The notes beneath the pieces are model-generated. The model made no database searches, was not told the DNA's origin, and saw only the letters and a program-made list of their open reading frames with translations. A stretch of 64,000 bases of DNA, taken from positions 2,948 to 66,947 of the IMG/VR virus record IMGVR_UViG_3300021979_000001; one strand, given 5' to 3'. Numbering within the stretch: position 1 is the stretch's first letter; each line of letters begins with the position of its first letter. Positions 10,458 through 43,954 of this stretch are shown here, one piece after another. The position numbers and the translations under genes are program-made. Source of the DNA: a virus (lineage: Duplodnaviria; Heunggongvirae; Uroviricota; Caudoviricetes).

Positions 10458-10513
10458 GAATAGGTCACGCCTGTAAAACGAATTATTAATATTATAATTC
10501 AAGTGTTGCATCA

Positions 10514-10771: not shown

Positions 10772-10819
10772 GATCGGTCACGCCTGTAGAAATAAACCAC
10801 TAAATTTTTATTGACTGTA

Positions 10820-11086: not shown

Positions 11087-11142
11087 GAATGGGTCACACC
11101 TGTAAAATGAATTATTCATAATGTAATCCAATTGTTGCATCA

Positions 11143-11388
11143 TTAGCTATGATCACGGCCATAACCATGACCACTCTCATAGCCATAACCATCAACATGA
11201 CCACTCGCATAGCCACGACCATAACCAGAATCAAGACCATCACCATGACCATAACCACGACCAGAGCCAAGACCAGAGCCACGACCAGAGCCAAGACCAG
11301 AGCCAAGACCATAACCATTACCATGACCGGAACCGGTTTTATGTGTATCGGCATTGATGTAAAACGACTGGTCTATAGATTGATTCAT
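11143..11388 (-). CDS. Gly-X repeat peptide minigene
   Basis: Leader MNQSIDQSFYINADTHKTGSG; 81 aa; tail GRDHS. Confidence 0.65.
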   Translation of the reverse strand: MNQSIDQSFYINADTHKTGSGHGNGYGLGSGLGSGRGSGLGSGRGYGHGDGLDSGYGRGYASGHVDGYGYESGHGYGRDHS

Positions 11389-11446
11389 GAAACGGTCTTA
11401 CCTGTAAAAATGAAATCACTTATATTGTAATTCAATTGTTGCATTA

Positions 11447-11698
11447 TTAGCTATTATCATGACCATTCCCATTGCCATAACCATCCCCCGCACTATCCCC
11501 ATAGCTGCCGCCATAACCATAACCACGACCATTACCATAACCATAGCCGCCGCCATAACCATAACCATGATCGGTGCCAACACCATAACCAGAACCATAG
11601 CCATGCTCATTGCCATGACCATAATCAACGCCGGGTCCATTATCGATTTCATGATCATGTGTGTTGATGTAAAACGACTGGTGTATGGATTGGTTCAT
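11447..11698 (-). CDS. Gly-X repeat peptide minigene
   Basis: Leader MNQSIHQSFYINTHDHEIDNG; 83 aa; tail GHDNS. Confidence 0.65.
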   Translation of the reverse strand: MNQSIHQSFYINTHDHEIDNGPGVDYGHGNEHGYGSGYGVGTDHGYGYGGGYGYGNGRGYGYGGSYGDSAGDGYGNGNGHDNS

Positions 11699-11756
11699 GA
11701 AACGGTCTTACCTGTAAAAATGAAATCACTTATATTGTAATTCAATTGTTGCATTA

Positions 11757-12026
11757 TTAGCTATTATCATGACCATTCCCATTCCCATTCCCATTGCCAT
11801 CCCCATCCCCCGCCCCCGCACTATCCCCATAGCCGCCGCCATAACCATAACAATGCGCGTCCCCAAATCCAGAGCCAAGACCATAACCATAACCATGATT
11901 GGTGCCAACACCATAACCAGAACCATAGCCATGCTCATTGCCATGACCATAATCAACGCCGGGTCCATTATCGATTTCATGATCATGTGTGTTGATGTAA
12001 AACGACTGGTGTATGGATTGGTTCAT
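11757..12026 (-). CDS. Gly-X repeat peptide minigene
   Basis: About 150 nt of 5'UTR, leader and early core are identical to 11447..11698; 89 aa. Confidence 0.65.
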   Translation of the reverse strand: MNQSIHQSFYINTHDHEIDNGPGVDYGHGNEHGYGSGYGVGTNHGYGYGLGSGFGDAHCYGYGGGYGDSAGAGDGDGNGNGNGNGHDNS

Positions 12027-12084
12027 GAAACGGTCTTACCTGTAAAAACGAAACCACTTATGTCGTAATTCAATTGTTGCATTA

Positions 12085-12204
12085 TTAGCTATTATCATGA
12101 CCATTCCCATTGCCATGCCCATTACAATAACCAAAACAATATTCATTGTCATTTTGGTTTAGATTAGTATTGATGTAAAAAATGTTGGATTATGGTGTGT
12201 TCAC
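12085..12204 (-). pseudogene. Decayed Gly-X minigene
   Basis: GTG replaces the ATG and there is an in-frame TAA at codon 5 (GTG AAC ACA CCA TAA). The remainder reads SNIFYINTNLNQ...GHGNGNGHDNS. Confidence 0.5.
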
Positions 12205-12270
12205 AGTAATTCGTTCAATCATGTATAAAATAACTAAATTATGCCTATTATAACTTAAATTGTTGCATCA

Positions 12271-12513
12271 TTAACCATACCCCGATCCATTACTATGATC
12301 TGTCAGATAACCATCACCATCACCAAACGCGGAACCATCACCACTTCCATCGCCATGGCCGTAACCATGACCACGTGCAGACCCAAACCGATCACCTAGA
12401 CTATACTTTTTATCATCATTATACTCATTGCCAGCACCATAACCAAAACCATAACCAGAAAACTTTTCGGATTGATCATATTGGGTATAATTTAATTTTA
12501 TGGATGTATTCAT
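12271..12513 (-). CDS. Gly-X repeat peptide minigene
   Basis: Leader MNTSIKLNYTQYDQSEKFSG; 80 aa. Confidence 0.6.
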   Translation of the reverse strand: MNTSIKLNYTQYDQSEKFSGYGFGYGAGNEYNDDKKYSLGDRFGSARGHGYGHGDGSGDGSAFGDGDGYLTDHSNGSGYG

Positions 12514-12616
12514 GATATGTTCTAGTAAATAATGAACGAAAAAATTAATTTACATTTCAATGTCAGTATTATCCATCACCATCACATATTCATGACCTGG
12601 CCTGTTTGTTGTATCA

Positions 12617-12907
12617 TTAATTATGATCACTGCCATTCCCATTACCATAACCAAAACCATGACCATTCCCAAGCCCTCTCCCAAAACCATGACCTTCACC
12701 ATTCCCCGAACCATACCCATTCCCAATACCATCGCCATCGCCATCACTATGACCATCACCAGACCCATCGCCAAAACCATAACCATTACTATCGCCATAA
12801 CCCAAAACGCCCCTAATACCACCACCATGCTTAGATGTTAATCTTTTGTAATATACATGTTTGGAAAGATCAGATGTATGGTAATTTAATTTTATGGATA
12901 GTTTCAT
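12617..12907 (-). CDS. Gly-X repeat peptide minigene
   Basis: Leader MKLSIKLNYHTSDLSKH; 96 aa; tail GSDHN. Confidence 0.6.
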   Translation of the reverse strand: MKLSIKLNYHTSDLSKHVYYKRLTSKHGGGIRGVLGYGDSNGYGFGDGSGDGHSDGDGDGIGNGYGSGNGEGHGFGRGLGNGHGFGYGNGNGSDHN

Positions 12908-12969
12908 GATAGGACCATCCCTGGTAATAAAAAATCACTAATATTTCAATTGGCAGTATCAATTAATCA

Positions 12970-13185
12970 TTAACTACAGTCATGCCCTGGACTCTCACCA
13001 TAACCATAACCATTCCCAACACCATTGCCATCCCCATCACCATAACCAGAACCGAAACCGTCCCCCTCATTATAACCATTCCCATTACCAGAACCGAAAC
13101 CATCGCCATTAGCAAAAATAGAACCATAAAGATTTCTCTTTAGGTCCGCATTGTATAAATAAAACAAATTAATTGGTGTATTCAT
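12970..13185 (-). CDS. Gly-X repeat peptide minigene
   Basis: Leader MNTPINLFYLYNADLKRN; 71 aa. Confidence 0.6.
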   Translation of the reverse strand: MNTPINLFYLYNADLKRNLYGSIFANGDGFGSGNGNGYNEGDGFGSGYGDGDGNGVGNGYGYGESPGHDCS

Positions 13186-13243
13186 GATCTGCTTCCTAGG
13201 TAATAAAATTGCTCATTCATGTTATACTTCAATTAATGCATCA

Positions 13244-13465
13244 TTAGTCAAAAAAACTAACGGAACCATTCCCATAGCCATAACTAGAACCATTGTCCAA
13301 ACCCTCGTTATAATCTTTTCCAGAACTATAACCATTTCCATAATCATAACCAAACCCGGCCCCATAGCCAAAACACCTGTAACTGGTATCTGCACCGGAA
13401 CCGAAACCAGAATCATTTATGGATAGATCAGACTCTTGATGATTTAATTTTACGAATATAGTCAT
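13244..13465 (-). CDS. Gly-X repeat peptide minigene
   Basis: Leader MTIFVKLNHQESDLSINDSG; 73 aa. Confidence 0.55.
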   Translation of the reverse strand: MTIFVKLNHQESDLSINDSGFGSGADTSYRCFGYGAGFGYDYGNGYSSGKDYNEGLDNGSSYGYGNGSVSFFD

Positions 13466-13517
13466 TATATGCCATATAAGGTAATAAGTTTAATAAATCA
13501 TATTATAATTGGTTGCA

Positions 13518-13745
13518 TCAATCACCATGACCCTTACCATCTCCAAAACCATACCCGAAACTATAACCAAACACCGAACCAATACCCTCGCCAACACCAA
13601 TACGGAAATCATTACCATCCCCATTCCCATAACCAAAACCATAACTTTCCCCAGTATAATAACCCGAACTCGGTTCATTACCCAACCACCCATCGGGTGT
13701 TAGGTCGGTGTTATAACAATAATACATTTTTATTGGCGTATTCAT
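13518..13745 (-). CDS. Gly-X repeat peptide minigene
   Basis: Uses Met8 of the track ORF; leader MNTPIKMYYCYNTDLTPDG; 75 aa. Confidence 0.55.
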   Translation of the reverse strand: MNTPIKMYYCYNTDLTPDGWLGNEPSSGYYTGESYGFGYGNGDGNDFRIGVGEGIGSVFGYSFGYGFGDGKGHGD

Positions 13746-13812
13746 AATTATTTTACCGAGTGACAAAAATAAGTTAACTAAATTGCATTACAACTTAGTG
13801 GTATCATTAATA

Positions 13813-14043
13813 TTACGTATCCCCATAATCATAACCAAATCCAGAACCCTTACCATAACCATTTCCCTGCTCGCCACCATACCCCGCACCAACCCCAGAA
13901 CCGTAACTATCTCCATTATTATAACCAGCACTGGCCCCCATCCCATAACTCAAACCATTACCAAAACCCAAACCAGACCCATCCCAGGAGACATCTTTTT
14001 TTAGATAGGGTTCGTGATAACACCAGTCGATAGCGGTATTCAT
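13813..14043 (-). CDS. Gly-X repeat peptide minigene
   Basis: Uses Met4 of the track ORF; leader MNTAIDWCYHEPYLKKD; 76 aa. Confidence 0.55.
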   Translation of the reverse strand: MNTAIDWCYHEPYLKKDVSWDGSGLGFGNGLSYGMGASAGYNNGDSYGSGVGAGYGGEQGNGYGKGSGFGYDYGDT

Positions 14044-14091
14044 AATTATCATCTCGGTAAAAAATGAAAGTTCAAATCACATATATTTCAA

Positions 14092-14287
14092 TTATTCGGA
14101 ATTACACCCCAGAGTGCCATACCTAAACCCAAAACCAAAACCATATTCATTCTCACCACCATATCCCTGACCGGAACACGAGCCATAACTATGACCATGA
14201 CTATGACCGGAACTATCGGTATGATCCGGTTCATCACCTGTTTCATTAGTGTGGTCATCGACAAAACAATAACATGTTTATATTCAT
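14092..14287 (-). pseudogene. Frameshifted Gly-X minigene
   Basis: ATG AAT ATA AAC, then a 1-nt shift before CYCFVDDHTNETGDEPD...GY core. The length of 196 nt is not a multiple of 3. Confidence 0.45.
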
Positions 14288-14313
14288 GTTATAATAAGAG
14301 CCATTTGAATAAT

Positions 14314-14550
14314 TTACGATATACGTCCATGACCATGACCATTGCCCGCCCCAAAACCATAATTATAACCATGCTCATTACCGGCGCTATCCCCAGCACC
14401 ATCCCCCATGCCATAACCTGCATGATACTCATTCCCATGACCCAACCCCGGACTATGATCATCCCCATAATCATCCCCGGCACCGGAACCAGAATTATCA
14501 GTTTTTAGATCGGGGTTATCGCAGTAATGAAACATAATCGATGGTTTCAT
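14314..14550 (-). CDS. Gly-X repeat peptide minigene
   Basis: Uses Met15 of the track ORF; leader MKPSIMFHYCDNPDLKTDNSG; 78 aa. Confidence 0.6.
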   Translation of the reverse strand: MKPSIMFHYCDNPDLKTDNSGSGAGDDYGDDHSPGLGHGNEYHAGYGMGDGAGDSAGNEHGYNYGFGAGNGHGHGRIS

Positions 14551-14581
14551 AATTGTTTCACCAAGTAAAAAATAAGTTAAA

Positions 14582-14824
14582 TTATTCACCATCTACGTTG
14601 CCATGACCATTGCCCGTCCCAAAACCATAACTATAACCATACCCATCATCCACACCATACCAGGCACCATCACCATTGCCATAACCCACGTCATATTGAT
14701 TCCCATAACCTTTCCCCGGACTATAATCATCCCCAGGATCATACCCGGCACATGAACCAGAGCCAGAACCATCGGTTATTGGATCGGGTTCATAGCAATA
14801 ATTAAATGCAATCGGTAGATTCAT
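14582..14824 (-). CDS. Gly-X repeat peptide minigene
   Basis: Leader MNLPIAFNYCYEPDPITDGSG; 80 aa. Confidence 0.6.
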   Translation of the reverse strand: MNLPIAFNYCYEPDPITDGSGSGSCAGYDPGDDYSPGKGYGNQYDVGYGNGDGAWYGVDDGYGYSYGFGTGNGHGNVDGE

Positions 14825-14877
14825 AATTGGTTCACCAATGAGAAAAAATAAGTTAAATCATTCACATTATATTTCAA

Positions 14878-15183
14878 TTATTCATAATTACGCCCAGTGC
14901 CATGCCCATCCCCATACCCAAAACCATCACCATCACTAGACACATAACCATCACCATCAACATAACCAATACCATTGCCAGCCCCATCACCATCACCATC
15001 AACATAACCAATACCATTGCCAGCCCCATCACCCATGCCATAACCTTCGTCATAATCATTCCCATAACCCTGCCCCGGATTATGATAATCCCCAGAATCA
15101 TAACCGGCACCGGAAACGGAACCATCACCATCACTTACTAGATCGGGGTTATTGCAATAATTAAATGTAATTGATGGTTTCAT
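14878..15183 (-). CDS. Gly-X repeat peptide minigene
   Basis: Leader MKPSITFNYCNNPDLVSDGDG; 101 aa. Confidence 0.6.
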   Translation of the reverse strand: MKPSITFNYCNNPDLVSDGDGSVSGAGYDSGDYHNPGQGYGNDYDEGYGMGDGAGNGIGYVDGDGDGAGNGIGYVDGDGYVSSDGDGFGYGDGHGTGRNYE

Positions 15184-15243
15184 AATTATTTCACTAAATG
15201 GTTAAACCACGTCAAATCGCACAGTTAGATTACAGGTATTGCA

Positions 15244-15444
15244 TCATTCACCCCTATTCCCATCACCACGACCATAACCCTCACCAGAAACAAAACCTTT
15301 ACCTGAACCATTCCCAAATCCATACACATTACCATAAGATATACCAAAACCATCCTCGGTGCCATGATCAGAGCCATGACCAAAACCATAAACATTGTTG
15401 GGTATATCATGGTTTTGGAAATATGATTCAATCGATATATTCAT
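15244..15444 (-). CDS. Gly-X repeat peptide minigene
   Basis: Uses Met6 of the track ORF; leader MNISIESYFQNHDIPNNVYG; 66 aa. Confidence 0.6.
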   Translation of the reverse strand: MNISIESYFQNHDIPNNVYGFGHGSDHGTEDGFGISYGNVYGFGNGSGKGFVSGEGYGRGDGNRGE

Positions 15445-15512
15445 AATTAAATCATTCATTTATTACATCATCAACTGTTACCAGGTCCATTGTCATACCC
15501 GCTTATCGGCAT

Positions 15513-15770
15513 CTATTCAGGTTCACCACTTGATCCATCCCAGTTTCCACGACTCGAACCATTACCAAATCCAAAAGCCGAACAATAACCATTTTTGTGA
15601 ATAAAAATATGTTCATACGTTTTGCCATCACCATAACCATAACCATAACCAGAACCATATCCATAACCATTACCAAATCCAAAAACCGAACCATTATCTG
15701 AAACAATTTCCGAAACAATTTCATTTGGGCTGCTATCATCGCAATATAATAAATTTATCAGTTCATACAT
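15513..15770 (-). CDS. Gly-X repeat peptide minigene (divergent)
   Basis: Leader MYELINLLYCDDSSPNE; 85 aa. Confidence 0.5.
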   Translation of the reverse strand: MYELINLLYCDDSSPNEIVSEIVSDNGSVFGFGNGYGYGSGYGYGYGDGKTYEHIFIHKNGYCSAFGFGNGSSRGNWDGSSGEPE

Positions 15771-15772
15771 AA

Positions 15773-15930
15773 TTAATACTGACCATCCATCGAACCCTCA
15801 CCAAACCCATGACCATATCCATAAATGTCACCAACATCATCACATTCGCCGCCCCATTTGTATGACAGTAGTTCGTTAGGACGTCATAATTAAAATAATA
15901 AAACCCGATTAATATATTAATGATACGGAC
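15773..15930 (-). pseudogene. Possible decayed Gly-X minigene
   Basis: A tail frame WGGECDDVGDIYGYGHGFGEGSMDGQY follows a stop. The leader-like INILIGFYYFNYD is in another frame and there is no ATG. Confidence 0.3.
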
Positions 15931-15989
15931 ACCCCAAGTGATAAAAAATGATTTAAATCACTACAACTATAATTCAACTGTTAAGTTCG

Positions 15990-16238
15990 TTAATCCGATC
16001 CATGACCGAAACCAGCACCATATCCAGTCCCAAAACCATCCCCATCACTAGAGCCATGACCATGACCATGACCATCTTTATAGTCTTGACCAGACCCGAC
16101 ACCATTGCCATCCCCATCACCTAGACCATAACCTTTGCCATCCCCTTTACCATAGCCTTCACCATCGCCATCATCATAACTGATTTCCTTTTGATCGGCG
16201 GTATTTATGTAAAAAGATAGGATTACGTATGTGTTCAT
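15990..16238 (-). CDS. Gly-X repeat peptide minigene
   Basis: Leader MNTYVILSFYINTADQKE; 82 aa. Confidence 0.55.
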   Translation of the reverse strand: MNTYVILSFYINTADQKEISYDDGDGEGYGKGDGKGYGLGDGDGNGVGSGQDYKDGHGHGHGSSDGDGFGTGYGAGFGHGSD

Positions 16239-16290
16239 AATATGTCACTCCAAACACAACAATAATAATTCAAAATACACATATTATATT

Positions 16291-16530
16291 TCAATAAGCA
16301 CCGTCACCATAACCATGCCCCCAATGCCCAGTCATATTTGTATCCCCAATATCAAACCCATTCCCATTCCCATTCCCTTTTCCAAAACCAAAACCATAAC
16401 CATCACTATCCCCATTATGATGGACATAACTAAGACTATAACCTTTCCAATTGTCATACCCATCATACCCATCACTATCATCATATTCACAGATATGGAC
16501 ATAATAATACAATATTATGTTAATGTGCAT
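16291..16530 (-). CDS. Gly-X repeat peptide minigene (divergent)
   Basis: Uses Met6 of the track ORF; leader MHINIILYYYVHICEYDDSDG; 79 aa. Confidence 0.5.
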   Translation of the reverse strand: MHINIILYYYVHICEYDDSDGYDGYDNWKGYSLSYVHHNGDSDGYGFGFGKGNGNGNGFDIGDTNMTGHWGHGYGDGAY

Positions 16531-16578
16531 TACGAGTTCCCACATGTAAATAACATAATCAAACAGTTAATATAATAT

Positions 16579-16839
16579 CTATTTCATGGTCATATAAAAA
16601 TGATCTGTTTCATTACCATCATTGGCACCAGCCCCATGTCCAACACCGTTACTATCACCTAAATCATCACCCGAAGCAGAATCATCCCCCATACCAGAAT
16701 TATTTGTATGTCCAGAACCACTTCCTCTACCATATCCAAACACATGTCCTTTTTTATGTCCATGCGCAAACCCACGACCATAGTGATACCAATTACTATA
16801 TACATCGACACAATAAATTACTTTTATGGGCAATTTCAT
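16579..16839 (-). CDS. Gly-X repeat peptide minigene (divergent)
   Basis: Uses Met4 of the track ORF; leader MKLPIKVIYCVDVYSNW; 86 aa. Confidence 0.5.
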   Translation of the reverse strand: MKLPIKVIYCVDVYSNWYHYGRGFAHGHKKGHVFGYGRGSGSGHTNNSGMGDDSASGDDLGDSNGVGHGAGANDGNETDHFYMTMK

Positions 16840-16901
16840 TATTAACATCCAATCAATTAAATAGATAAACCGTAATAATTATAATTATTTCTTACACTAA
16901 T

Positions 16902-17180
16902 TCACCATGATTTTCTGACCCATTTATGCGAGCCGTAACCAATATTATAACTTGACCCATATCCATTTCCCTGTCCATCAGCATAACCATAACCATGCCC
17001 TGCCCCTGAAAGATAACTAACCCCTAACGTTGGGCTTGTATCCCCAACATATGCAGAGCCATCCCCCTGCCCGTCACCTTTAACAGAACCATCCTCATAC
17101 TCCGAACCAGTTCTAGTCCCGGAAAAGTTGTTATAAAGATCGGCATTTCGGTAAAAACACGATTTTATGGTGGGTTTCAT
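16902..17180 (-). CDS. Gly-X repeat peptide minigene (divergent)
   Basis: Uses Met4 of the track ORF; leader MKPTIKSCFYRNADLYNN; 92 aa. Confidence 0.5.
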   Translation of the reverse strand: MKPTIKSCFYRNADLYNNFSGTRTGSEYEDGSVKGDGQGDGSAYVGDTSPTLGVSYLSGAGHGYGYADGQGNGYGSSYNIGYGSHKWVRKSW

Positions 17181-17238
17181 ACTTATCACACTTGCAAAAA
17201 GTTGGATTAGTCATAAAATAAACACAATGGTGGCTGCA

Positions 17239-17484
17239 TTACCCGAAACTATCACCGAAATAAAAACCGTAAGCGTGACCACATCCAAGACCCTCACAAT
17301 TACCAGATTTAGCATTTAATCCATAATCCTGACCATGACCGTAAACGGCCCAATATCGAATTACGTAACTTATTTCATAATGAGAACCACTTCCCTGCCC
17401 CTCGCCATAACCACCCCCATTACGAATTAAAGAACCATTACCCGAACGTTTTATGTAATATAAATCTATTGGTATATTTGCCAT
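17239..17484 (-). CDS. Gly-X repeat peptide minigene (divergent)
   Basis: Leader MANIPIDLYYIKRSGNG; 81 aa. Confidence 0.5.
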   Translation of the reverse strand: MANIPIDLYYIKRSGNGSLIRNGGGYGEGQGSGSHYEISYVIRYWAVYGHGQDYGLNAKSGNCEGLGCGHAYGFYFGDSFG

Positions 17485-17533
17485 TTGACTTCGCCAAGTA
17501 AAAATGGATATATGGAGATAATCATTTCATTGT

Positions 17534-17728
17534 TCACTCTGCCATAGCACCATGCCCATAGCCATAACCACCATCAAACACGTTCCCATACCCATTACTA
17601 TCCCCATCCTCATACCCATCGCTAGAGTCAGACCCGTATCCATACCCGGTTCCATCACTATTGCCATATCGATAGCTATTATTATGTTGATCAACTGTGT
17701 AATATAGTAGTGTTATAGGTAGTTTCAT
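17534..17728 (-). CDS. Gly-X repeat peptide minigene
   Basis: Leader MKLPITLLYYTVDQHNN; 64 aa. Confidence 0.55.
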   Translation of the reverse strand: MKLPITLLYYTVDQHNNSYRYGNSDGTGYGYGSDSSDGYEDGDSNGYGNVFDGGYGYGHGAMAE

Positions 17729-17826
17729 TGTTTTATTACCAAGTTGGGTTCAACCGAAATAATACTGGTAAGTATATCAATCATACTCATATATCATTTA
17801 ATAATATAAGGGATAATGTAGTTTGG

Positions 17827-18213
17827 TTAGTCCTGTCCTAACGCATCTGACGAAAACGGATGTGAATTATCCATATGCTGACTGCATAACCATTCAATTC
17901 CAGTAATGGAGTAAACACCATTAACTGCGGGCGCGCCGCAATAATGACATTTTTTGTGTGCCATTTCGGACGTTCCGTCGTGTTTAGCACGTTTTTTACT
18001 GAACTTGGACTTTGTAAAATGCCCCGCTTTCATCTGGGTAACGGATTTACCCATTGCTCGGTAATTTGCCCCATTAATTCCTGTTGTTTTGGTTTGGTGT
18101 TTTGCTTTACACCCTTTACAACAATACTGCGCCCATCCTCGATTGCGATCTGCAATTCTTGCTTCAAAATCAGTTTTACACCATAAGCAAGAAAATGTTC
18201 CAGTGGCCGCCAT
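17827..18213 (-). CDS. Cys-rich zinc-ribbon-like small protein embedded in the array
   Basis: GGAG SD 9 nt upstream of the ATG. Contains CLWC, CCKGC and CHYC...C..H motifs; 128 aa and basic. Confidence 0.6.
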   Translation of the reverse strand: MAATGTFSCLWCKTDFEARIADRNRGWAQYCCKGCKAKHQTKTTGINGANYRAMGKSVTQMKAGHFTKSKFSKKRAKHDGTSEMAHKKCHYCGAPAVNGVYSITGIEWLCSQHMDNSHPFSSDALGQD

Positions 18214-18348
18214 AGGTCAAATCTCCATAATGGGGGGTAAAAATCATAAACAATTGTAGTATTTTTGGTTATATAAAGCAAAGATTAAAATTATTGTTTT
18301 TTGATGATTGGAATGGCATATAACACGGTGTCATCAATAACTTATTTC

Positions 18349-18594
18349 TCAATCAACCAAGTTTGCAATACCAAAACCATAACCGTTACTATCGCCTTCG
18401 GTATTACCTGGACCATCCCCATAACCTTCCCCATTACTTACACTATTACTAAATCCAAAACCATGCCCTGAACCATTACCAAAACTACGACCACAACCAC
18501 CCCCGTATTCTGATATAGCAATATCACCTACGGAATCATCATCACCTGGATAAAAATCGACGATATGATATGATAGTATGACAGTTTTCATCAT
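18349..18594 (-). CDS. Gly-X repeat peptide minigene (first in transcription order, divergent)
   Basis: Leader MMKTVILSYHIVDFYPGDDD; 81 aa. Confidence 0.5.
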   Translation of the reverse strand: MMKTVILSYHIVDFYPGDDDSVGDIAISEYGGGCGRSFGNGSGHGFGFSNSVSNGEGYGDGPGNTEGDSNGYGFGIANLVD

Positions 18595-18661
18595 TTTTTT
18601 TTCGTTAATAACGACCTGGCGTTGACCTGATAGTAAAGATTACATCGTTTTTAAGGGCCTA

Positions 18662-21578: not shown

Positions 21579-22667
21579 TTACTTGAACTGATCACCAAAC
21601 GGATCAAAATCTTTTCCGCATGTTTTGGCACATACTTTTAATTTACCTGCGGCACAACTTGGTTTTGACCATGTGCTTTCGATGTAATTGAACATTGGCC
21701 CGGCTAAAATCTTTTCAACTGAAACCATGATACCATTGATTGCATCTTTGCCACCAACATGCTCGATTATTTTCCAAAGAGGCGATGATTTTGGTTCCAA
21801 ATACCATACATAAAGCTGGTTGGCGGTCCAACAGCATGGAAATACCAAACCTTCTGCCGATATATATATTGACCCTTCGGTATCAGTTTTGCAGGTGATC
21901 GGGGTATTATCCAAATAATTTTGCAAGCTACCATGCTTCGCAATTAATGATTGTTCCTGTTGCAAAGCATTGTTTTGGTATTGCGGATCAATTGGTTTTT
22001 CCAGGACGTGTTTTACGGTCCCATCCTTACCCATAACATCTTGCGAATCTTTGCCTTTTAGTTGGTTATTTGAGAAGAACCGCCCGGTTTTTTTAACCTG
22101 GAAGTGAATAAAACCCATTTCTGCGGCAAGGGTGCGGGCATCGTCCACCTGGTGTTCATTGTGTTTGAAAACAATATAATCCCAAATTGCGCGGCCACCA
22201 GATTGAATAAATGATTCCACATTACGCATAATAACATCGAACCGGCATCCTTGACGATACAGATGATTTGTATCATCAAGACCATCAATACCAAACCGAA
22301 CACTGTCACCTTTTTTTGATAACAGTTTACCGAGTTCTCCCCACCATTCGGGATTTTTCGCGCTACCATTGGTATTCATACCAAGGGTAATATTTGGGTT
22401 CATTTCTCGGAAATATTTCATTACGTCCAAGGTATCTTGGGCTGCAATTGGGTCGCCAAAATTACCACACATGTAAATTCGATTAAGACTTAGTAAAAAT
22501 TCCTTTGTGAAGATTTTTTTACAATCATCTAACGTCAATTCGGTAATCGGCAGGGATGGGTTTACCCATGTTCCAAGGACATTTCGTCCACATTGCGGGC
22601 ATGATGCATTGCATCTGGATGTGATTTCCAAATGCACAGTTTTAATACGAGAATATTCAAATGCCAT
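21579..22667 (-). CDS. Radical SAM enzyme with SPASM/twitch-like C-terminal Cys cluster (copy 1)
   Basis: CNASCPQC (CX3CX2C) at residues 19-26. Also CKTDTEGSIYISAEGLVFPC (CX13GX4C) and CAAGKLKVCAKTC. Confidence 0.85.
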   Translation of the reverse strand: MAFEYSRIKTVHLEITSRCNASCPQCGRNVLGTWVNPSLPITELTLDDCKKIFTKEFLLSLNRIYMCGNFGDPIAAQDTLDVMKYFREMNPNITLGMNTNGSAKNPEWWGELGKLLSKKGDSVRFGIDGLDDTNHLYRQGCRFDVIMRNVESFIQSGGRAIWDYIVFKHNEHQVDDARTLAAEMGFIHFQVKKTGRFFSNNQLKGKDSQDVMGKDGTVKHVLEKPIDPQYQNNALQQEQSLIAKHGSLQNYLDNTPITCKTDTEGSIYISAEGLVFPCCWTANQLYVWYLEPKSSPLWKIIEHVGGKDAINGIMVSVEKILAGPMFNYIESTWSKPSCAAGKLKVCAKTCGKDFDPFGDQFK

Positions 22668-22939: not shown

Positions 22940-23637
22940 TTTATACCAATCATCATAAAACGGGTATAATTGGCGGTGCTAATATATTTGTCTCCTTCGA
23001 ACATAACATTTGTCATTGGGGCCATTGCTTTAAACTCGCCAATACTGTTCACACAATTGATGTGATCGCGTCCACCAAATAGGTTATTTGATTGGATAAC
23101 GCATAGCGTTCCAGACGGAATCATGTTCCACCAGGTAGCAACATCAATATGTTCGCATGATGTATTAACGATCACATCGGGACGTTCATGTAATGTTACA
23201 ACAGACCCATCAGATCGTTTCGTATCATATTTATGTCCCGTATAATCAATATTGAACATATCACCGGTTGATGCCTTGAACCGCCATCCATTTACAACAT
23301 ATGGTATTTTATTTACCGCTTCTGCAATAACGGCGCATTCGGGATCGATGTCAAAACTTCGAATAACTCCTATATCAAGATTTGATCTGAACAGCATTGC
23401 GGGTAGTGTTCCCAGCCATCCCCCCAGAATGAACATAGTGGTCATTTTGGGATTGATTTTTGTTAGTTCCGCAACCAGCCATTTTTTTGATTGGAGTTGC
23501 CCCCATGACAATGCATCGTCCCAATACGCATCTGGATATTGGGATATAGCTTTGCGTAAATTAGATAAAAACTGGTCATCTGTGATATATTCCAGCTTAT
23601 GTAAAATATCATGCGATTGTATCATAAACGTGGTCAC
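22936..23637 (-). CDS. Putative class I SAM-dependent methyltransferase-like protein
   Basis: Gly-rich loop MFILGGWLGTL followed by an acidic strand IRSFDIDPE. The match is weak. Confidence 0.35.
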   Translation of the reverse strand: MTTFMIQSHDILHKLEYITDDQFLSNLRKAISQYPDAYWDDALSWGQLQSKKWLVAELTKINPKMTTMFILGGWLGTLPAMLFRSNLDIGVIRSFDIDPECAVIAEAVNKIPYVVNGWRFKASTGDMFNIDYTGHKYDTKRSDGSVVTLHERPDVIVNTSCEHIDVATWWNMIPSGTLCVIQSNNLFGGRDHINCVNSIGEFKAMAPMTNVMFEGDKYISTANYTRFMMIGIK

Positions 23638-24349
23638 TCTTTTTAAATTGTTCAGTTAGCCAGTTCCAATCATTGATTTTCGCCAACTCGGGTTGATTAT
23701 CGCAATATTTGATACCATATTGTTCGCCCGCTTTTGCACCAGCTATTGAGAACTGACCATATTCACGATCAGTGCCCATCGTTTTCCACGTGGATAATCG
23801 TTGTTCGGTTTCAAAATCCTTTTGGTTTTTTATCGTTTTGCTTGACAACTTAACACATTCACGAAATGCGCTTTTCCAGGTCTCAAATGGTGATGTATTA
23901 TATCGTGTTTCAGAAACCAGTTCATTAACTATATGATATGATGTGGTTACAGATGTCGTCATGTCAATACTAGTGGTATCCACATCTATCAAATGTCTGG
24001 TAGAAAATAGCTTGATTGCACCATATCCATAAACCAAATCATTGACTGCATTTTTACACCGATACACATGGACTCCATTTGGGTCTGGTTCAAATGATGG
24101 GATAAATTCAAATTTATCATAGACCCAATTATCTGCATCAACGGTGAAGAAAAAATCAGTAGTTGATTGCTGCGCACATGCCATATGGGCGGCATGAATG
24201 CCGGTCACACCATGAACACGATCTGCCCATGGTGCAACATCTAACAATCTTGCATAATTCTGTTCGCTATTTGGTTCATTGTAACTTAAAAAGAATATGT
24301 CATACATTGATAAAAATCTTCGTTTTTGTTTATACGTGTCATACGTCAT
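23609..24349 (-). CDS. GT-A-like putative glycosyltransferase, paralog 1
   Basis: Motifs YDIFFLSYNEPN, HGVTGI and FFFTVDADN (DxD-like), shared with 24568..25470 and 25467..26123. Confidence 0.4.
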   Translation of the reverse strand: MTYDTYKQKRRFLSMYDIFFLSYNEPNSEQNYARLLDVAPWADRVHGVTGIHAAHMACAQQSTTDFFFTVDADNWVYDKFEFIPSFEPDPNGVHVYRCKNAVNDLVYGYGAIKLFSTRHLIDVDTTSIDMTTSVTTSYHIVNELVSETRYNTSPFETWKSAFRECVKLSSKTIKNQKDFETEQRLSTWKTMGTDREYGQFSIAGAKAGEQYGIKYCDNQPELAKINDWNWLTEQFKKSDHVYDTIA

Positions 24350-24578
24350 CCCAAGTCACCAGTTCAATATATTGTGCTGGGCCAACCTCACTGGGCAATC
24401 CCCCATATTCATTAACGTAATGACGTATGATCGCTTTGTAAAATCCTTGGCTATCATGATGTGCTTCACGTGTGAAGACGTATAATTCATTATTGCCATA
24501 TTTGTAATGGGCCATCGCAAGACTAGACTCGGTTTGTAACTTCAATAAATCCATGGCATCAAACATATTATAATACAA
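24339..24578 (-). CDS. hypothetical small protein (79 aa)
   Basis: ORF that overlaps both neighbouring genes, suggesting translational coupling. Confidence 0.45.
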   Translation of the reverse strand: MYYNMFDAMDLLKLQTESSLAMAHYKYGNNELYVFTREAHHDSQGFYKAIIRHYVNEYGGLPSEVGPAQYIELVTWDDV

Positions 24579-25470
24579 CCTTATCCATATTAGGGAACAT
24601 CAAACCTGATCGAACCGGGTTAATGTATGTCATCTTTACCCACCGACTAGCATCAGGTCCAAGCATTGGTAAATGAAGTCCCAAATGATGTTCTAATAGT
24701 TTGCCATATTTTTCTGCATTCGTCCAGGCACACTCATTTTTATGGGTAATCCATTCTGAATCAAACCAGTCGTAATTATTGATATTAGATATGGATTTAT
24801 GTAATACCCAAGTATCATAAAGACCTAATCTTGCACCATATATTGCCTCTCGACCATGCGTCACATCACTACCAACACACAACCACATCATTAACCGGGA
24901 AAGATTTGATTTGGCAATACGATCAATATCCCACTTGTTATCATCGGGTTTGATGCCATTAGGTAAACTCAATTTTACGCCTTCTCGATACCCCGCACGA
25001 AAGGCTTGATATGCCGATTGGTTACACATTACTGTTGACCCCAATTGATCAATTTGCATATAACGCAATGACCAACAAAAATCAGTTGTGTCGCGACCAA
25101 CGGTTGCATTTTCATGTGTTTTCATATTGACAATATTAACCGGCCAGCATTTGATTCCACCGTTCCCATATGCCAACCCATTGATGATATTTGTTGCTTT
25201 AAACGAATAAACCACATCTTCTAAATTAGTATCATCAAATTCATATTCGAAAATATTTGGATTGATTTCGTTGTCACCATCAATTGTTACAAATCTGGGC
25301 GTTTTGCTCAATCGTGCCGCCCGTTTATGGGCTTTATCAAAACCTTTAACCCCATGAATTCGATGAACCTGCGGGAAATAACCTTCAATTTTCTCATAAA
25401 AGGAATCTGCATATGGTTCATCGTAACTAATGTAAAAAATATCCAGGTCAGATAATCGATAGGTTGTCAT
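24568..25470 (-). CDS. GT-A-like putative glycosyltransferase, paralog 2
   Basis: Motifs LDIFYISYDEP, HGVKGF, FVTIDGDN, YGNGGIKCW and YREGVKL. Confidence 0.4.
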   Translation of the reverse strand: MTTYRLSDLDIFYISYDEPYADSFYEKIEGYFPQVHRIHGVKGFDKAHKRAARLSKTPRFVTIDGDNEINPNIFEYEFDDTNLEDVVYSFKATNIINGLAYGNGGIKCWPVNIVNMKTHENATVGRDTTDFCWSLRYMQIDQLGSTVMCNQSAYQAFRAGYREGVKLSLPNGIKPDDNKWDIDRIAKSNLSRLMMWLCVGSDVTHGREAIYGARLGLYDTWVLHKSISNINNYDWFDSEWITHKNECAWTNAEKYGKLLEHHLGLHLPMLGPDASRWVKMTYINPVRSGLMFPNMDKVVL

Positions 25471-26123
25471 TTTATATCCTCAAATTTTAATTTTAGCCAA
25501 GCAAAGTCGTTGATTTTTTTCAACGCGGTTATGTTGTGTTTATTGCGTAATCCATACTGTTCTCCGGCAACTGCGCCTTTGACTACCATATTCGCCCCAT
25601 ACCCGGTTCCAGGATGTTTCCATTGTTCAAGGCGATTAGCATTTTCATAATCATCGGAAACTGCAAGTTTTACGCATTCACGAAATGCTGCTCGCCAACA
25701 ATCGAAATCTGATGAATTATAATGTGTGATTGACTTGACTTCGGGGATAATTTTTAGTTCAAAAGAAGTGGTCATGTCTAATGGTTGATCTGACATATTA
25801 AGAACAATTTCTTTTGGAAATAGTTTTATACCACCCCAGCCATATTCTAACCCGTTAACTGGGTTTCGTGCATACCAAAGATGCACATATTTGCGATCCC
25901 ATGCGGAAAGTTTGATGGTGAAATCAAAATCAATAATTTCTGAATCCGCATCAATAACAAAAAAATTTCTGGTTTTGGATAGCTTGGCGCACTCATAATG
26001 TGCATTATGAATTCCGGTTATTCCAGACACATGCGACGAATGCGGTGCATGTCGAACAAGTTTTTTCCAATGTTGTTGTGCCATTGGTTCATTATAACTT
26101 AAGAAAAAAACGTCATACATCAT
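25467..26123 (-). CDS. GT-A-like putative glycosyltransferase, paralog 3
   Basis: Motifs YDVFFLSYNEP, SGITGI, FFVIDADS, YGWGGIKLF and FRECVKL. Confidence 0.4.
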   Translation of the reverse strand: MMYDVFFLSYNEPMAQQHWKKLVRHAPHSSHVSGITGIHNAHYECAKLSKTRNFFVIDADSEIIDFDFTIKLSAWDRKYVHLWYARNPVNGLEYGWGGIKLFPKEIVLNMSDQPLDMTTSFELKIIPEVKSITHYNSSDFDCWRAAFRECVKLAVSDDYENANRLEQWKHPGTGYGANMVVKGAVAGEQYGLRNKHNITALKKINDFAWLKLKFEDIK

Positions 26124-26297: not shown

Positions 26298-26870
26298 ATG
26301 GAAAAACAAATGTCTAATGCAAATCTTTTTGGTTCTAAACCCAGTGATCGCGTTGCTGTGTTTTTCGACGGGGCGAACCTGTTTGCCAGCACTCGGGCCT
26401 TGGACGTTCACTTGGATTATTCCAAGCTGACCGAAGCCCTGGGCACGGGATGCAACATGATGCGGATGTATTACTACACCGCCCTGCCGGATGGTGATGC
26501 TCAATGCGCGGTTCGTCCGCTTGTGGATTGGCTCGACTATAACGGCTATACCATGGTCACGAAGCCAACCAAGGAATTCACCGACTCCGCAACTGGTTTG
26601 CGGAAAATCAAAGGTAACATGGACATCGAAATTGCAATTGATGTGATGGAAATGGCACCGCACCTTGACCATGTGATCCTGTTTTCCGGTGATGGCGATT
26701 TCCGGCGTCTGGTTGAGGCGGTTCAACGCAAAGGGGTGCGCGTTACTGTTGTATCGACCGTCAAATCGAACCCATCGATGATTGCGGATGAACTTCGTCG
26801 CCAGGCCGACAAATTCGTCGAACTTGCGGACATCATGTCGTATGTCGTGCGGGATGTGCGGGAGAAATAA
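26298..26870 (+). CDS. NYN/LabA-like (DUF88) domain protein
   Basis: VAVFFDGANLF...NMDIEIAIDVM...VILFSGDGDFRRLVEAVQRKGVRVTVVS. GC content is well above the flanks. Confidence 0.75.
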   Translation: MEKQMSNANLFGSKPSDRVAVFFDGANLFASTRALDVHLDYSKLTEALGTGCNMMRMYYYTALPDGDAQCAVRPLVDWLDYNGYTMVTKPTKEFTDSATGLRKIKGNMDIEIAIDVMEMAPHLDHVILFSGDGDFRRLVEAVQRKGVRVTVVSTVKSNPSMIADELRRQADKFVELADIMSYVVRDVREK

Positions 26871-26908
26871 TTCCATCATACCAGCACGGTTAGTTATTAA
26901 TCAAAAAA

Positions 26909-26934
26909 GCGGTCCTTTATGGGCCGCTTTTTTT
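26909..26934 (+). terminator. Rho-independent terminator
   Basis: GCGGTCC-TTTAT-GGGCCGC followed by T7, with an A6 run upstream. Confidence 0.7.
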
Positions 26935-27048
26935 GTAAATAAACTCAATTACCATTGGGTTATAATTACGCGATGGATTGCTGATTTAAAAATAGACTTT
27001 TAAAGTAATCATCAAGTATTATAACTCAAATTATTGAGTTATTTTGTT

Positions 27049-27771
27049 ATGAATACTTTATCGATAAATGAACTAAGAAATGATTTAAAAGAATCAACAA
27101 ATAATATGTCCTGGACCGTAAGTAATATTATCACCGATGATGGTCTTTTACTACCACCAACGTCCGATTCTAAAGAAATATCGAAGTTATTAGAGCGACA
27201 AGCGGAAATACATTTGAGCAAGATTGCGGATAAGTATGGGTATGTTTTTGAAACAAGTAGTAGACAAAATACATACCCGGACGGAACATTAACAAAATAT
27301 GATGCTGGCAGAATACTCCATAGAATAGCAATAGATGCAAAAAGCACGTTTGAAAAACCATCCATGAATTTGACACTTGGTAGCTACACATCATTTTTAT
27401 TGAACGACAATAAAAGCATTACATATCCATATTCGACATATGATGACCATTGGGTTATGATTTTTACATATCGTCGAACAGAGGATGGTTCTTATGATTC
27501 AGTCAGATGGTATTTAACTGAAAAAGCCCGCATCACCGGGTTGGTGGCGGGTAGCGGCAACACAAAAAATATAGGGAGTGTTCGTTTCAGAAAAGTAGAT
27601 GATTTAACATCAATTAATGGGCCATTTGCCCGTTTCAAAAACATGAAAGGGGCTTCTGATCACTATTGGCGCAACTATGATCGTTTGCGCAAAGAAATCA
27701 AAAGCCCTGGCGATTTGATAATGCACCCGGAATTTGTTCAATTCACAAATCTGGAACGTAGTAATTGTTGA
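27049..27771 (+). CDS. EcoRV-family type II restriction endonuclease (PD-(D/E)XK)
   Basis: Matches EcoRV as I recall it along its length: KIADKYGY, QNTYPDGTL, IAIDAKST, LTLGSYTSF, ITYPYSTYDDHWVMIFTYRR, AGSGNTKNIGSV, HYWRNYDR. Confidence 0.75.
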   Translation: MNTLSINELRNDLKESTNNMSWTVSNIITDDGLLLPPTSDSKEISKLLERQAEIHLSKIADKYGYVFETSSRQNTYPDGTLTKYDAGRILHRIAIDAKSTFEKPSMNLTLGSYTSFLLNDNKSITYPYSTYDDHWVMIFTYRRTEDGSYDSVRWYLTEKARITGLVAGSGNTKNIGSVRFRKVDDLTSINGPFARFKNMKGASDHYWRNYDRLRKEIKSPGDLIMHPEFVQFTNLERSNC

Positions 27772-28828
27772 TTTTGTGTTGTAAAGCTGGAATTTTTGAT
27801 GATATTCCTTCGGTGGAAAGAATAATCAATCGATCTGCGGTCACGTAACTTTCGCACTTTGCATTGGTAAATGTCCCTAATTCGTTCCCATATCCGATTA
27901 GGATACCGCAATTAAGATTTAAAATATTGTTTGCGGTTTGTTTCCAGTCAATAACCGTGCGGTTAATGGCAACAGAGATCACACTATCTCCTTTGGCCGT
28001 GAATAAATCTTCTATGATTTCTTCGGTTCCAGGCGCGACCATCGCCCGAACCGCCATTGCTGGATAACTGCGCATGGGACGAATAACCGATGTTGCACCG
28101 GCAGCAATGATACGTTTTCGATTATGATCTGATACGCATTCAGCGATGATGGGAACGGATGGGTTTTGTTCACGAACGTGGTATACCGTGGAGAACGTGA
28201 TTGAGTCATCATCATTGCTGCCACTAGGTGCGATAACAAAGATCGCACGGCATTTGGTCAAACCGACTTGTTCGGACATGCCAGGACTGTTGATGTTTCC
28301 ATGATTGAAAATTGTTCGATTGTCAAAATCGCACAGGTTGGTCGTCCATTGGTCAGTGAGGATATTAATTGCGATTTTATTATATTCTGGAATATCACGA
28401 ATTTCCCGGATGAATTCCTGAAAATATTTTACCGCATTTGGTCCATTCGGTGACCCGATAACTAAAATGTGATCGTTCAATTTCCAGTTCCATTTCCCGG
28501 TTTTTATTGCATTTGATCGAAATTCGCGCATATCTTGATAAATGTCAATCATTCTAGCAAAAATTGCCAATGCTGGAATAAACAATACCATAACGCTTAT
28601 TATTCGACCGATAGGGGTTGATGCGGACAAATCCCCATATCCAATTGTAGTGATACTGGTTGAAGCCAACCATAACGCATCACCGATGGTCATATTTTCA
28701 TATATGACCATCGTTGGAACAAATATCCCGATACATAGTAATAAAATTGCACCTAATTCAAAGAACTCGCGTTTTGTCGTCTTGTTTCGAATTAGTTGAC
28801 GATTGCGCCAAAAAAACAAAAAGTGCAT
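27743..28828 (-). CDS. 2TM potassium channel with C-terminal RCK/TrkA-N-like domain
   Basis: Selectivity filter TSITTIGYGD lies between two TM helices. It is followed by ILVIGSPNGPNAVKYFQEF, which looks Rossmann-like. Confidence 0.8.
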   Translation of the reverse strand: MHFLFFWRNRQLIRNKTTKREFFELGAILLLCIGIFVPTMVIYENMTIGDALWLASTSITTIGYGDLSASTPIGRIISVMVLFIPALAIFARMIDIYQDMREFRSNAIKTGKWNWKLNDHILVIGSPNGPNAVKYFQEFIREIRDIPEYNKIAINILTDQWTTNLCDFDNRTIFNHGNINSPGMSEQVGLTKCRAIFVIAPSGSNDDDSITFSTVYHVREQNPSVPIIAECVSDHNRKRIIAAGATSVIRPMRSYPAMAVRAMVAPGTEEIIEDLFTAKGDSVISVAINRTVIDWKQTANNILNLNCGILIGYGNELGTFTNAKCESYVTADRLIILSTEGISSKIPALQHKINNYYVPDL

Positions 28829-41922: not shown

Positions 41923-42016
41923 TTTTTTCGTGCAAACACACAGTTTAATTTAGGTCTACGTCACCCCCCTATGTTAAATTAATATGGTAAACAAAAATTA
42001 ATTGTGTGGATTGCTC

Positions 42017-42700
42017 ATGTTTCTTAATTATAAGTTTAACTACCCATCTTTGCAAAGAGTTACCCACGCCAGCGGCGAACGGTATTATGTATGTCCATTG
42101 ACCGGTAGTCCATTGACCTCGGTTACAACCATCCTGTCAGCTACCGACGAAAATAAAGAGGCACTTGCTAACTGGCGAAAATTTGTTGGTGATGCAAAAG
42201 CAGATCGGGTCATCACCGAAGCCAGGAATAAGGGTAGTTTGATGCACGAAGACCTTGAACTGTTCGTGCAAGGGAAGCCAAGATCAACCGGCACAAACCT
42301 GATTCACAAAATGGCACGCAATATGGCAAACGGCATCATCAATGATTGTCTTTGTGATGTTGATGAAGTATGGGGATTAGAAGTCCCGTTATATTATCCA
42401 CAACTATATGCAGGGACAACCGATTTGGTTGGTGTTTATAAAGGCAAAGACGCCATTATGGATTACAAAACAACCAAGAAAATGAAGACAAAAAGCCAAA
42501 TCACTAATTATTTTTGCCAGGGTGTGGCTTATGCTATTGCACACAATCTTCATTTTGAAACGAATATATCAACTGTTGCTATCTTCATGGTTGATTCCAA
42601 TAACTTCGCAACAACATTCGAGATTACTGGTAGTGAGTTTGAACATTATGCAGAAATTTTTCTTAAAAAGCTAAATCAGTTTGGTGTTCTGGTAGACTAA
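42017..42700 (+). CDS. PD-(D/E)XK (RecB/Cas4-like) exonuclease
   Basis: GTTDLVG...IMDYKTTKK (D...D-x-K) and QGVAY (QxxxY). Confidence 0.5.
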   Translation: MFLNYKFNYPSLQRVTHASGERYYVCPLTGSPLTSVTTILSATDENKEALANWRKFVGDAKADRVITEARNKGSLMHEDLELFVQGKPRSTGTNLIHKMARNMANGIINDCLCDVDEVWGLEVPLYYPQLYAGTTDLVGVYKGKDAIMDYKTTKKMKTKSQITNYFCQGVAYAIAHNLHFETNISTVAIFMVDSNNFATTFEITGSEFEHYAEIFLKKLNQFGVLVD

Positions 42701-43900: not shown

Positions 43901-43954
43901 AGCTAAATAACTGTCCCAAATAATAGAAATAGAATGGTAATTAAGGATATATCT

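Follow-up and report, generated by a model that had tools for sequence, protein, structure and literature searches.

The 64,000-bp stretch of phage DNA analyzed here (hereafter, the window) encodes an EcoRV-family restriction endonuclease (REase) at positions 27,049–27,771 and contains no copy of GATATC, the hexamer recognized by EcoRV. Based on the nuclease protein, the composition of the window, and the homologous loci of other genomes, this enzyme is probably a GATATC nuclease that is active, has no partner methylase, and does the phage no harm, as the genome carries no sites. The absence of GATATC from the window is complete and selection-driven, the catalytic and base-reading residues of the nuclease are intact, and an EcoRV homolog without a partner methyltransferase is strictly associated with zero GATATC across independent viral lineages. 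These results suggest that viruses can safely keep a DNA-cutting enzyme by removing its target from their own genomes. We infer the activity and GATATC specificity of the window nuclease.

The nuclease open reading frame (ORF) begins with an ATG at 27,049, ends with a stop codon at 27,769–27,771 on the + strand, and encodes 240 amino acids (aa); an in-frame TTG (27,034) lies upstream, and the identical 240 aa were called by the Joint Genome Institute (JGI) on identical contigs. Membership in the EcoRV family is shown by Pfam PF09233 (Endonuc-EcoRV; E 2.3e-28, 99.7 bits where the gathering cut-off is 25), by a nearly full-length phmmer match to the EcoRV chains of the PDB (E 7.5e-30), and by the PADLOC Type II model REase_II (E 2.5e-32); no PHROGs or NCBIfam model matched the protein. 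The EcoRV homology claimed in an earlier interpretation made from the DNA letters and translations alone (the sequence-only reading) is therefore real, and all seven EcoRV-like peptide blocks listed there are present in the translation. The nearest relatives in a large protein database are 37–47% identical to the window nuclease.

Residue conservation was assessed in an alignment of the nuclease with EcoRV and 21 homologs (A1) and in a later alignment with 54 homologs; the EcoRV row of A1 agrees with HMMER alignments to the PDB chains. Equivalents of EcoRV D36, K38, E45, Q69, N70, D74, D90, K92, T111/S112, and K119 are all kept in the nuclease (A1), and most of these catalytic or contact columns are invariant among the 23–55 aligned homologs. 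The catalytic E45, D74, D90, and K92 of EcoRV (PD...D-x-K) correspond to E49, D78, D96, and K98 of the nuclease, confirming that the catalytic Asp, Asp, and Lys have not been lost; across homologs, E49, D96, and K98 are invariant and D78 nearly so. The recognition R-loop of EcoRV (G182-S-G-N185-T186-x-N188) is found as 168-GSGNTKN-174 and the Q-loop residues Q69/N70 as Q73-N74, with the GSGNT.N columns and Q73 invariant family-wide. The roles of these EcoRV residues in catalysis and in base and phosphate contacts are established in the structural and biochemical literature. An AlphaFold2 model of the nuclease (alignment A2) has a mean predicted local distance difference test score (pLDDT) of 90.6 and a predicted template-modeling score (pTM) of 0.87. 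When this model was compared with the PDB using Foldseek, the top 39 matches were all EcoRV chains (query-normalized template-modeling score [TM] 0.61–0.75, best 0.71–0.75), which places the protein in the EcoRV fold; the next family in the ranking was SwaI (TM 0.47).

GATATC is missing over the whole window (positions 1–64,000, an unstranded feature), where 21–33 copies are expected. The expectation was 20.7–32.9 under Markov models of orders 0–4 and 25.1 ± 5.2 in dinucleotide shuffles. A within-gene synonymous-codon shuffle, which preserves every protein sequence and the codon usage of each gene, gave 21.3 ± 4.1 copies with a minimum of 12 in 200 trials. None of the 82 Asp-Ile dipeptides is written GAT-ATC (16.9 expected), and the control palindromes CATATG, ATCGAT, TGATCA, and AATATT occur at expectation. 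Under the highest-order Markov model, GATATC is the most significant missing hexamer of the window (p = 2e-11). The manual scan of the sequence-only reading had likewise found no GATATC, and the six one-off neighbors named there are present in 33–52 copies each. Flanking sequences from identical metagenomic contigs are also free of the site (8.6 kb on the right, L203 1–8637; 2.3 kb on the left, L207 1402–3739), giving 0 observed vs. ~29 expected in the window and its 10.9 kb of flanks. The exact nuclease protein is encoded on a 457,165-bp contig, and the ~75 kb examined represents ~16% of this genome; the site count and the methyltransferase results below hold for that part. In this readable portion, the nuclease has no recognition site, as would be the case for a solitary REase protected by an absent target.

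No METHYLTRANSFERASE was in reach, and a DNA methyltransferase was absent from 27 kb upstream to 36 kb downstream of the nuclease. Pfam placed none of ~55 window ORFs in a DNA methyltransferase family, PADLOC matched no methyltransferase model in 57 window ORFs, and hidden Markov models (HMMs) built from the partner methyltransferases of homologs gave a best E > 1 against the six-frame translation of the window. A scan of long frames for the motif [DNS]PP[YFWH] returned a single SPPF, located inside an amidoligase homolog. Pfam, PADLOC, the custom HMMs, and the motif scan all agree with the sequence-only reading, in which no methyltransferase had been recognized. The window does not contain a complete Type II restriction-modification (R-M) system, in which a cognate methyltransferase would stand beside the endonuclease. 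One ORF with a match to S-adenosylmethionine (SAM)-dependent methyltransferases (49,500–50,180; E 2e-4) was considered as the cognate enzyme and rejected as a DNA methyltransferase: it matched only generic small-molecule models and has no DPPY/NPPY motif, and it sits between a 2-oxoglutarate (2OG) oxygenase gene and a radical SAM gene.

GATATC and partner methyltransferases at homologous loci

A total of 193 homolog loci (33 viral, 80 genomic, and 80 metagenomic) were scored for methyltransferase and GATATC after clustering of their flanking genes, two clusters of which are D12-class N6-adenine methyltransferases (Pfam PF02086). A D12-class methyltransferase adjoins the nuclease in 164 of these loci, which together contain 518 GATATC (491 expected). 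With regard to origin, 77 of 79 cellular loci are paired in this way and carry 319 GATATC (264 expected under an order-1 model); for viral loci the proportion is 16 of 33, with 43 sites vs. 62 expected, and for metagenome loci it is 71 of 80, with 156 sites vs. 165 expected. In contrast, GATATC was absent from all 17 viral loci without a methyltransferase (0 observed, 41.5–55.9 expected) and from the nine metagenome loci without one (0 observed, 15–18 expected). Not all methyltransferase-less loci are independent, and those that were fetched collapse to a marine group, an AT-rich group, and contig L026. Among the paired viral loci, three (L006, L031, and L034) encode nuclease and methyltransferase yet have 0 GATATC (4–6 expected each). 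They also avoid other sites strongly, with no TGCA, CGCG, or GCGC in L006 and no GTAC in the giant-virus contig L034.

In the marine phage group, the nuclease adjoins thyX, and members share 84–99.9% nucleotide identity on contigs of up to 86 kb. The marine nuclease is short (197 aa) and belongs to a widespread uncultured lineage (L007, L009–L014, L016, L018–L022, L157, L159, L166, L173, and L184). The AT-rich group consists of L024, L025, and L027, and the third lineage is a single contig of 516,805 bp (L026); all three share only the nuclease with the window. Cataloged phages hardly ever carry EcoRV-like genes: a tblastn search of 50,697 phage records with the window nuclease matched only the haloarchaeal Halogranum tailed virus 1 (HGTV-1). 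The complete HGTV-1 genome (143,855 bp) has 0 GATATC (30–46 expected) and no D12 methyltransferase to accompany its EcoRV-like gene 181, and its only annotated DNA methyltransferase carries C5-cytosine motifs. An unpaired EcoRV homolog and zero GATATC are thus found together in five lineages, i.e., the window phage, L026, the marine group, the AT-rich group, and HGTV-1. Beyond the nuclease, none of the other four lineages resembles the window in its DNA or genes.

Of 2,080 hexamer classes, only GATATC and CCCGGG are absent from all five lineages. GATATC is expected 8–41 times per lineage (101 in total), whereas the absence of CCCGGG from the AT-rich lineage is uninformative because only 0.5 copies are expected there. 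Among the hexamers for which the expectation is substantial in each lineage, GATATC is therefore the only one missing from all five. Palindromes with comparable expectation are absent at rates of 4/28, 1/45, 7/31, 11/30, and 33/57 by lineage, corresponding to a joint probability of ~1.5e-4. About 65 kb of the marine lineage lacks just five hexamer classes, including GATATC, AAGCTT, and TGCGCA. The unpaired marine nuclease has a ratio of nonsynonymous to synonymous substitution rates (dN/dS) of 0.02–0.07 at dS up to 0.88, indicating strong purifying selection, and no GATATC has arisen in any diverged genome of this lineage.

The genome context of the window was compared with that of known phages. 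Besides the nuclease, the window encodes a ribonucleotide reductase (RNR), a DnaB-type helicase, a primase, an Acb1 protein directed against the cyclic-oligonucleotide-based anti-phage signaling system (CBASS), a PAAR protein, and others. The helicase shares 52% identity with its counterparts in Sinorhizobium phage Phosso (469 kb) and Agrobacterium phage Atu_ph07 (490 kb), and the primase, the helicase, several flanking ORFs, and their gene order are common to the window and both phages. Megablast of 24–32 kb of the window against the 50,697 phage records returned no match. Based on the helicase similarity and the shared genes, the window phage is a giant phage of the Atu_ph07/Phosso group; from this relationship and a Ros/MucR regulator gene, one might guess, and only guess, that the host is an alphaproteobacterium. 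The EcoRV-like gene is absent from Atu_ph07 and Phosso (tblastn), and both contain GATATC at or above expectation (24 and 23 per 41 kb, respectively) as well as GTAC (50 and 102 per 41 kb, respectively). The sequence-only reading had proposed that the phage may be self-immune by avoiding the site. This view is well supported by the zero counts in unpaired viral lineages, the normal counts where a partner is present, and the 23–24 sites per 41 kb in relatives that lack the gene.

Alternative explanations and a proposed history of the locus

Several points weigh against an active nuclease protected by missing sites. Many other sites are avoided in the window as fully as GATATC, a property that the sequence-only reading had not seen. 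GTAC is absent (~139 expected; ~100 by synonymous shuffle), as are 26 of the 64 palindromic hexamers, including TGGCCA, CGATCG, TCCGGA, GGATCC, AGATCT, and CCCGGG (7–21 expected each). The asymmetric (Type IIS-like) words CTGAAG, CTCCAG, CTCAG, AGCTC, and CTCATC are missing, and so are GTGCAC and AGATCC. Broad avoidance of restriction sites is the classic signature of host restriction pressure. Because the window is such a broad avoider, the absence of GATATC is ambiguous when taken alone and would need no special explanation, and its loss may be unrelated to the phage's own enzyme. The comparison across genomes reduces this ambiguity. All five unpaired lineages are themselves broad site avoiders, and the association may merely reflect site-poor genomes that tolerate such a gene; the avoided sets differ by lineage (GTAC in the window; AAGCTT in the marine group; ACGT in the AT-rich group; TGCA in L026; GATC, CTAG, and AGCT in HGTV-1).

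Other points on the same side concern the gene itself. The nuclease lacks a segment of ~20 residues that aligns with roughly positions 142–161 of EcoRV, its sole structural oddity. Metagenomic copies of the window locus are 99.99–100% identical, so that dN/dS is uninformative for the window gene. One cellular homolog has sites and no nearby D12 methyltransferase: in Corynebacterium senegalense (L110, NZ_LS990887.1, gene 9875–10792), the motifs are intact, an IS3-like transposase ORF adjoins, no D12 methyltransferase is found within 10 kb, and three GATATC are present, one of them inside the nuclease gene. The link between unpaired nuclease and zero sites is, thus, not absolute outside viruses. 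A distant methyltransferase or a DNA hypermodification pathway in the remaining genome is possible, and uncharacterized genes of the radical SAM, 2OG-oxygenase, and amidoligase types, together with the weak SAM-methyltransferase match, are present in the window itself.

The alternative that survives best, although we consider it unlikely, is a tolerated passenger: GATATC was purged by host restriction, and the nuclease is a harmless R-M leftover that brings no benefit and is perhaps poorly expressed or inactive. At least 15 other restriction-type words are fully absent from the window with no matching phage nuclease visible, the closest homologs (37–44% identity) are proteobacterial and have an adjacent methyltransferase, and neither a strong promoter nor a Shine-Dalgarno sequence stands out in the region ahead of the nuclease gene. 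The near-identical copies also lack the polymorphism that could reveal selection on the window gene. However, the unpaired state is found in five unrelated viral lineages, in one of which (the marine group) the gene is under the strong purifying selection described above. The catalytic and recognition residues are intact at an identity of only about 35–45% to any homolog, which points to long retention rather than to recent capture and decay.

It is improbable that the system is split or protected in another way, with a cognate methyltransferase or a cleavage-blocking modification encoded in the other ~380 kb and the site avoidance incidental. In favor of this, the examined DNA makes up only ~16% of the genome, prokaryotes with R and M genes that lie apart have been documented (PMC3488263), and the EcoRV-like gene of HGTV-1 is distant from both a C5 methyltransferase gene and a Mom-like modification gene; the uncharacterized modification-type genes of the window would also fit. 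Nevertheless, with 0 GATATC in ~75 kb (29 expected), a site-specific methyltransferase would have nothing to protect, the complete HGTV-1 genome has neither a D12-class methyltransferase nor sites, and a globally hypermodified genome would not need such extreme site avoidance. A changed function, in which the EcoRV fold serves another specificity or role (e.g., a homing-type or recombination nuclease) and the GATATC absence is unrelated, has a similarly low probability. In its favor, the protein is only 35% identical to EcoRV with a ~20-residue deletion, and jumbo phages have turned restriction-fold nucleases to recombination and packaging (PMC7824862). Against it, the GSGNTxN loop and Q69/N70 are invariant, as are the residues that act in catalysis or contact phosphates; no well-expected hexamer other than GATATC is missing from each of the five viral lineages that carry an unpaired homolog; and the gene, being absent from the related phages Atu_ph07 and Phosso, is not a core replication or packaging function.

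Under the preferred reading, in which the nuclease is active and the missing sites protect the phage, the protein would be a functional homodimeric, Mg2+-dependent Type IIP enzyme that recognizes GATATC like EcoRV. With no GATATC in its DNA, the phage would be immune without a cognate methyltransferase, and unmethylated DNA bearing the site in the infected cell would be cut, with the host chromosome, plasmids, and co-infecting phages as possible targets. Such use on host or competitor DNA is plausible by analogy with other viral nucleases; it may serve the breakdown of host DNA for shut-off and nucleotide supply, the exclusion of competing DNA, or both. As for its origin, the genome was most likely purged of GATATC first by host restriction, as for many other sites, and the site-free genome could then have captured and kept the R gene of a bacterial R-M system without M. 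Once resident, the nuclease would enforce the continued lack of GATATC. An active nuclease entering a genome with ~175 or more sites would be lethal, and therefore site loss before gene capture is the most economical order. A host EcoRV-like system, which the sequence-only reading had offered as an alternative driver, may account for the avoidance and could even have been what originally cleared the genome of the site.

It was also considered whether other restriction-type nucleases of the window could explain its remaining missing sites (e.g., GTAC), and none was found. The only further PD-(D/E)XK protein (42,002–42,700) is a conserved phage exonuclease (phrog_298; 49.5% identical to that of Phosso), and PADLOC found no REase in the window besides the nuclease. 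A bolder extension, that extreme site avoidance in such viruses partly reflects compatibility with their own, partly unrecognized nucleases and not escape from host enzymes alone, finds no support in the window with respect to the other avoided sites.

Surroundings of the nuclease gene and other features of the window

The neighbor upstream of the nuclease gene, which is also on the + strand, encodes a NYN/LabA-like nuclease (26,298–26,870; Pfam NYN E 4e-36, PADLOC NYN E 4.7e-23); a functional tie between the two genes is speculative. The NYN gene is followed by an intrinsic terminator (26,903–26,941, + strand) with the hairpin AGCGGUCC-UUUAU-GGGCCGCU and a run of seven U. This hairpin was overlooked by a terminator scan and then confirmed by folding (-20.6 kcal/mol, z = -6.7 vs. 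shuffles). Given this strong terminator, the nuclease gene is a separate transcription unit, probably with its own promoter. The sole promoter candidate found in a consensus scan is a weak sigma-70-like sequence (TAGACT-18 nt-TATTAT, 26,993–27,022, + strand; 9/12 matches), and promoter-type matches are no more common in the region than in shuffles. Direct reading also revealed an inverted repeat (AACTCAA-ATTA-TTGAGTT, 27,023–27,040, + strand) that falls in the stretch from the candidate -10 element to the start codon and could be an operator or a hairpin of the 5' untranslated region. Downstream, a convergent gene on the - strand (27,743–28,828) encodes an RCK/TrkA-N domain in fusion with a K+ channel that has the selectivity filter TTIGYGD (Ion_trans_2; Pfam), and the 3' ends of the two genes overlap by 29 nt.

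The left part of the window (1–18,600, - strand) is occupied by ~40 paralogous small ORFs of 64–107 aa, and this array continues past the left end (L207 1402–3739). After a conserved N-terminus of ~20 aa (e.g., MNTSIELYYCVNSHLTNDDF, MVTIYNLYYSIPLITNDETYG, and MKPYINQSFYINIY), each predicted product continues as a long tail of Gly-X repeats in which D, Y, H, S, and N abound; these products have no recorded family match. A pair of paralogous radical SAM proteins (21,579–22,667 and 50,881–51,966, both - strand) matches twitch/SPASM peptide-maturase models, and the small-ORF products might be substrates of these enzymes. Near the second radical SAM gene are the genes for the 2OG-Fe(II) oxygenase (50,174–50,860, + strand) and the weak SAM-methyltransferase match described above (49,500–50,180, + strand), and an amidoligase is encoded at 57,340–58,641 (- strand); together with the radical SAM proteins, these could form a peptide- or nucleotide-modification pathway.

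The RNR alpha subunit is split into two ORFs (43,934–45,673 and 45,818–47,092, + strand) with a 144-nt gap, the first ending in an N-terminal intein half and the second starting with a C-terminal half; this arrangement represents either a split intein or an intein with a decayed endonuclease part. A homolog of Acb1, the phage anti-CBASS cyclic-nucleotide phosphodiesterase (52,129–52,590, + strand; Pfam E 3.2e-35), is located between a radical SAM gene and the gene for the RNR small subunit. Three tandem paralogs (23,609–24,349, 24,568–25,470, and 25,467–26,123, - strand) have a common N-terminal D[VI]F[FY][LI]SY[ND]EP motif and no Pfam or PHROGs match.

Comparison with known systems

Restriction enzymes are usually viewed as a cellular defense that needs a partner methylase, and site avoidance by phages as a passive escape from host enzymes. 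The present results suggest another arrangement, in which a virus purged of a site can carry the matching nuclease alone, as a sequence-specific tool that leaves its own DNA safe and requires no modification pathway. We propose, tentatively and with less confidence than for the window phage itself, that methyltransferase-free Type II enzymes are a recurrent viral weapon with immunity written in the genome, from megaphages to marine phages and archaeal viruses. An active enzyme would account for the solitary REase genes that have been counted in phages without explanation, and the specificity of uncharacterized viral nucleases could be read from the missing words of a genome, as for GATATC. Megaphages and the abundant, uncultured phages of the sea would also gain a further way of taking over a host or of competing with other viruses. 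The proposal lends itself to direct tests, given a small protein, mature EcoRV biochemistry, and a carrier (HGTV-1) that is in culture.

The window nuclease resembles R.EcoRV (PDB 1RVE, 1AZ0) in Pfam family, predicted fold, catalytic and Q-loop/R-loop residues, and probable target (GATATC). It differs in sequence (~35% identity), in the missing segment around EcoRV positions 142–161, in its location on a ~457-kb giant phage genome rather than on a plasmid or chromosome, and in the lack of an adjoining M.EcoRV-type (D12-class) methyltransferase. HGTV-1 gene 181 ('Restriction endonuclease EcoRV') is alike in being an unpaired viral EcoRV homolog in a genome with zero GATATC and broad palindrome avoidance. 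In contrast to the window phage, HGTV-1 is an archaeal virus; its protein (197 aa, 28% identical) ends just past the YWR motif, and its genes include those for a Mom-like enzyme and a C5 methyltransferase. In the literature searched, no link was drawn between gene 181 and the missing sites of HGTV-1. More generally, the EcoRV family, solitary REases of phages, and PacI-type protection are already known, whereas unpaired EcoRV-type nucleases in GATATC-purged viruses, as read here from sequence, and their recurrence across lineages appear to be undescribed in the searched literature, in which subscription journals are sparsely covered.

In other viruses, host DNA is attacked while viral DNA is protected, as in the R-M systems of chloroviruses and in T4, where endonucleases II and IV act together with hydroxymethylcytosine. 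The Mom-REase fusions of jumbo phages likewise combine an attack on host DNA with a protected viral genome (PMC7824862). The role proposed for the window nuclease is the same, i.e., to disable host or competitor DNA while sparing its own. However, the chlorovirus, T4, and Mom-REase systems rely on base modification, whereas the window nuclease is unpaired and its protection would come from the sequence itself.

A bacterial precedent for such protection is PacI of Pseudomonas alcaligenes, which, in the account summarized in PMC3488263 (citing Shen et al. 2010), is a solitary enzyme without a methyltransferase; the host can tolerate it because no copy of the 8-bp target is present in the host's DNA. 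Self-protection by target absence, not modification, would be shared with the window nuclease. PacI belongs to the HNH enzymes, and for its rare, AT-only site, absence from a GC-rich bacterium is near chance expectation. The window nuclease, in contrast, has a 6-bp site that is expected 21–33 times per 64 kb (~175–200 per genome, extrapolated) and that has been purged at synonymous positions, repeatedly, in viruses. In the available sections of the survey by Oliveira, Touchon and Rocha (2014; PMC4176335), 12 solitary REases were counted in 831 phages, an approximately two-fold over-representation compared to chromosomes; those sections propose no self-protection mechanism or function for them and do not examine site content. 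Relative to that part of the survey, the present case supplies both a candidate protection mechanism and a comparative test of it.

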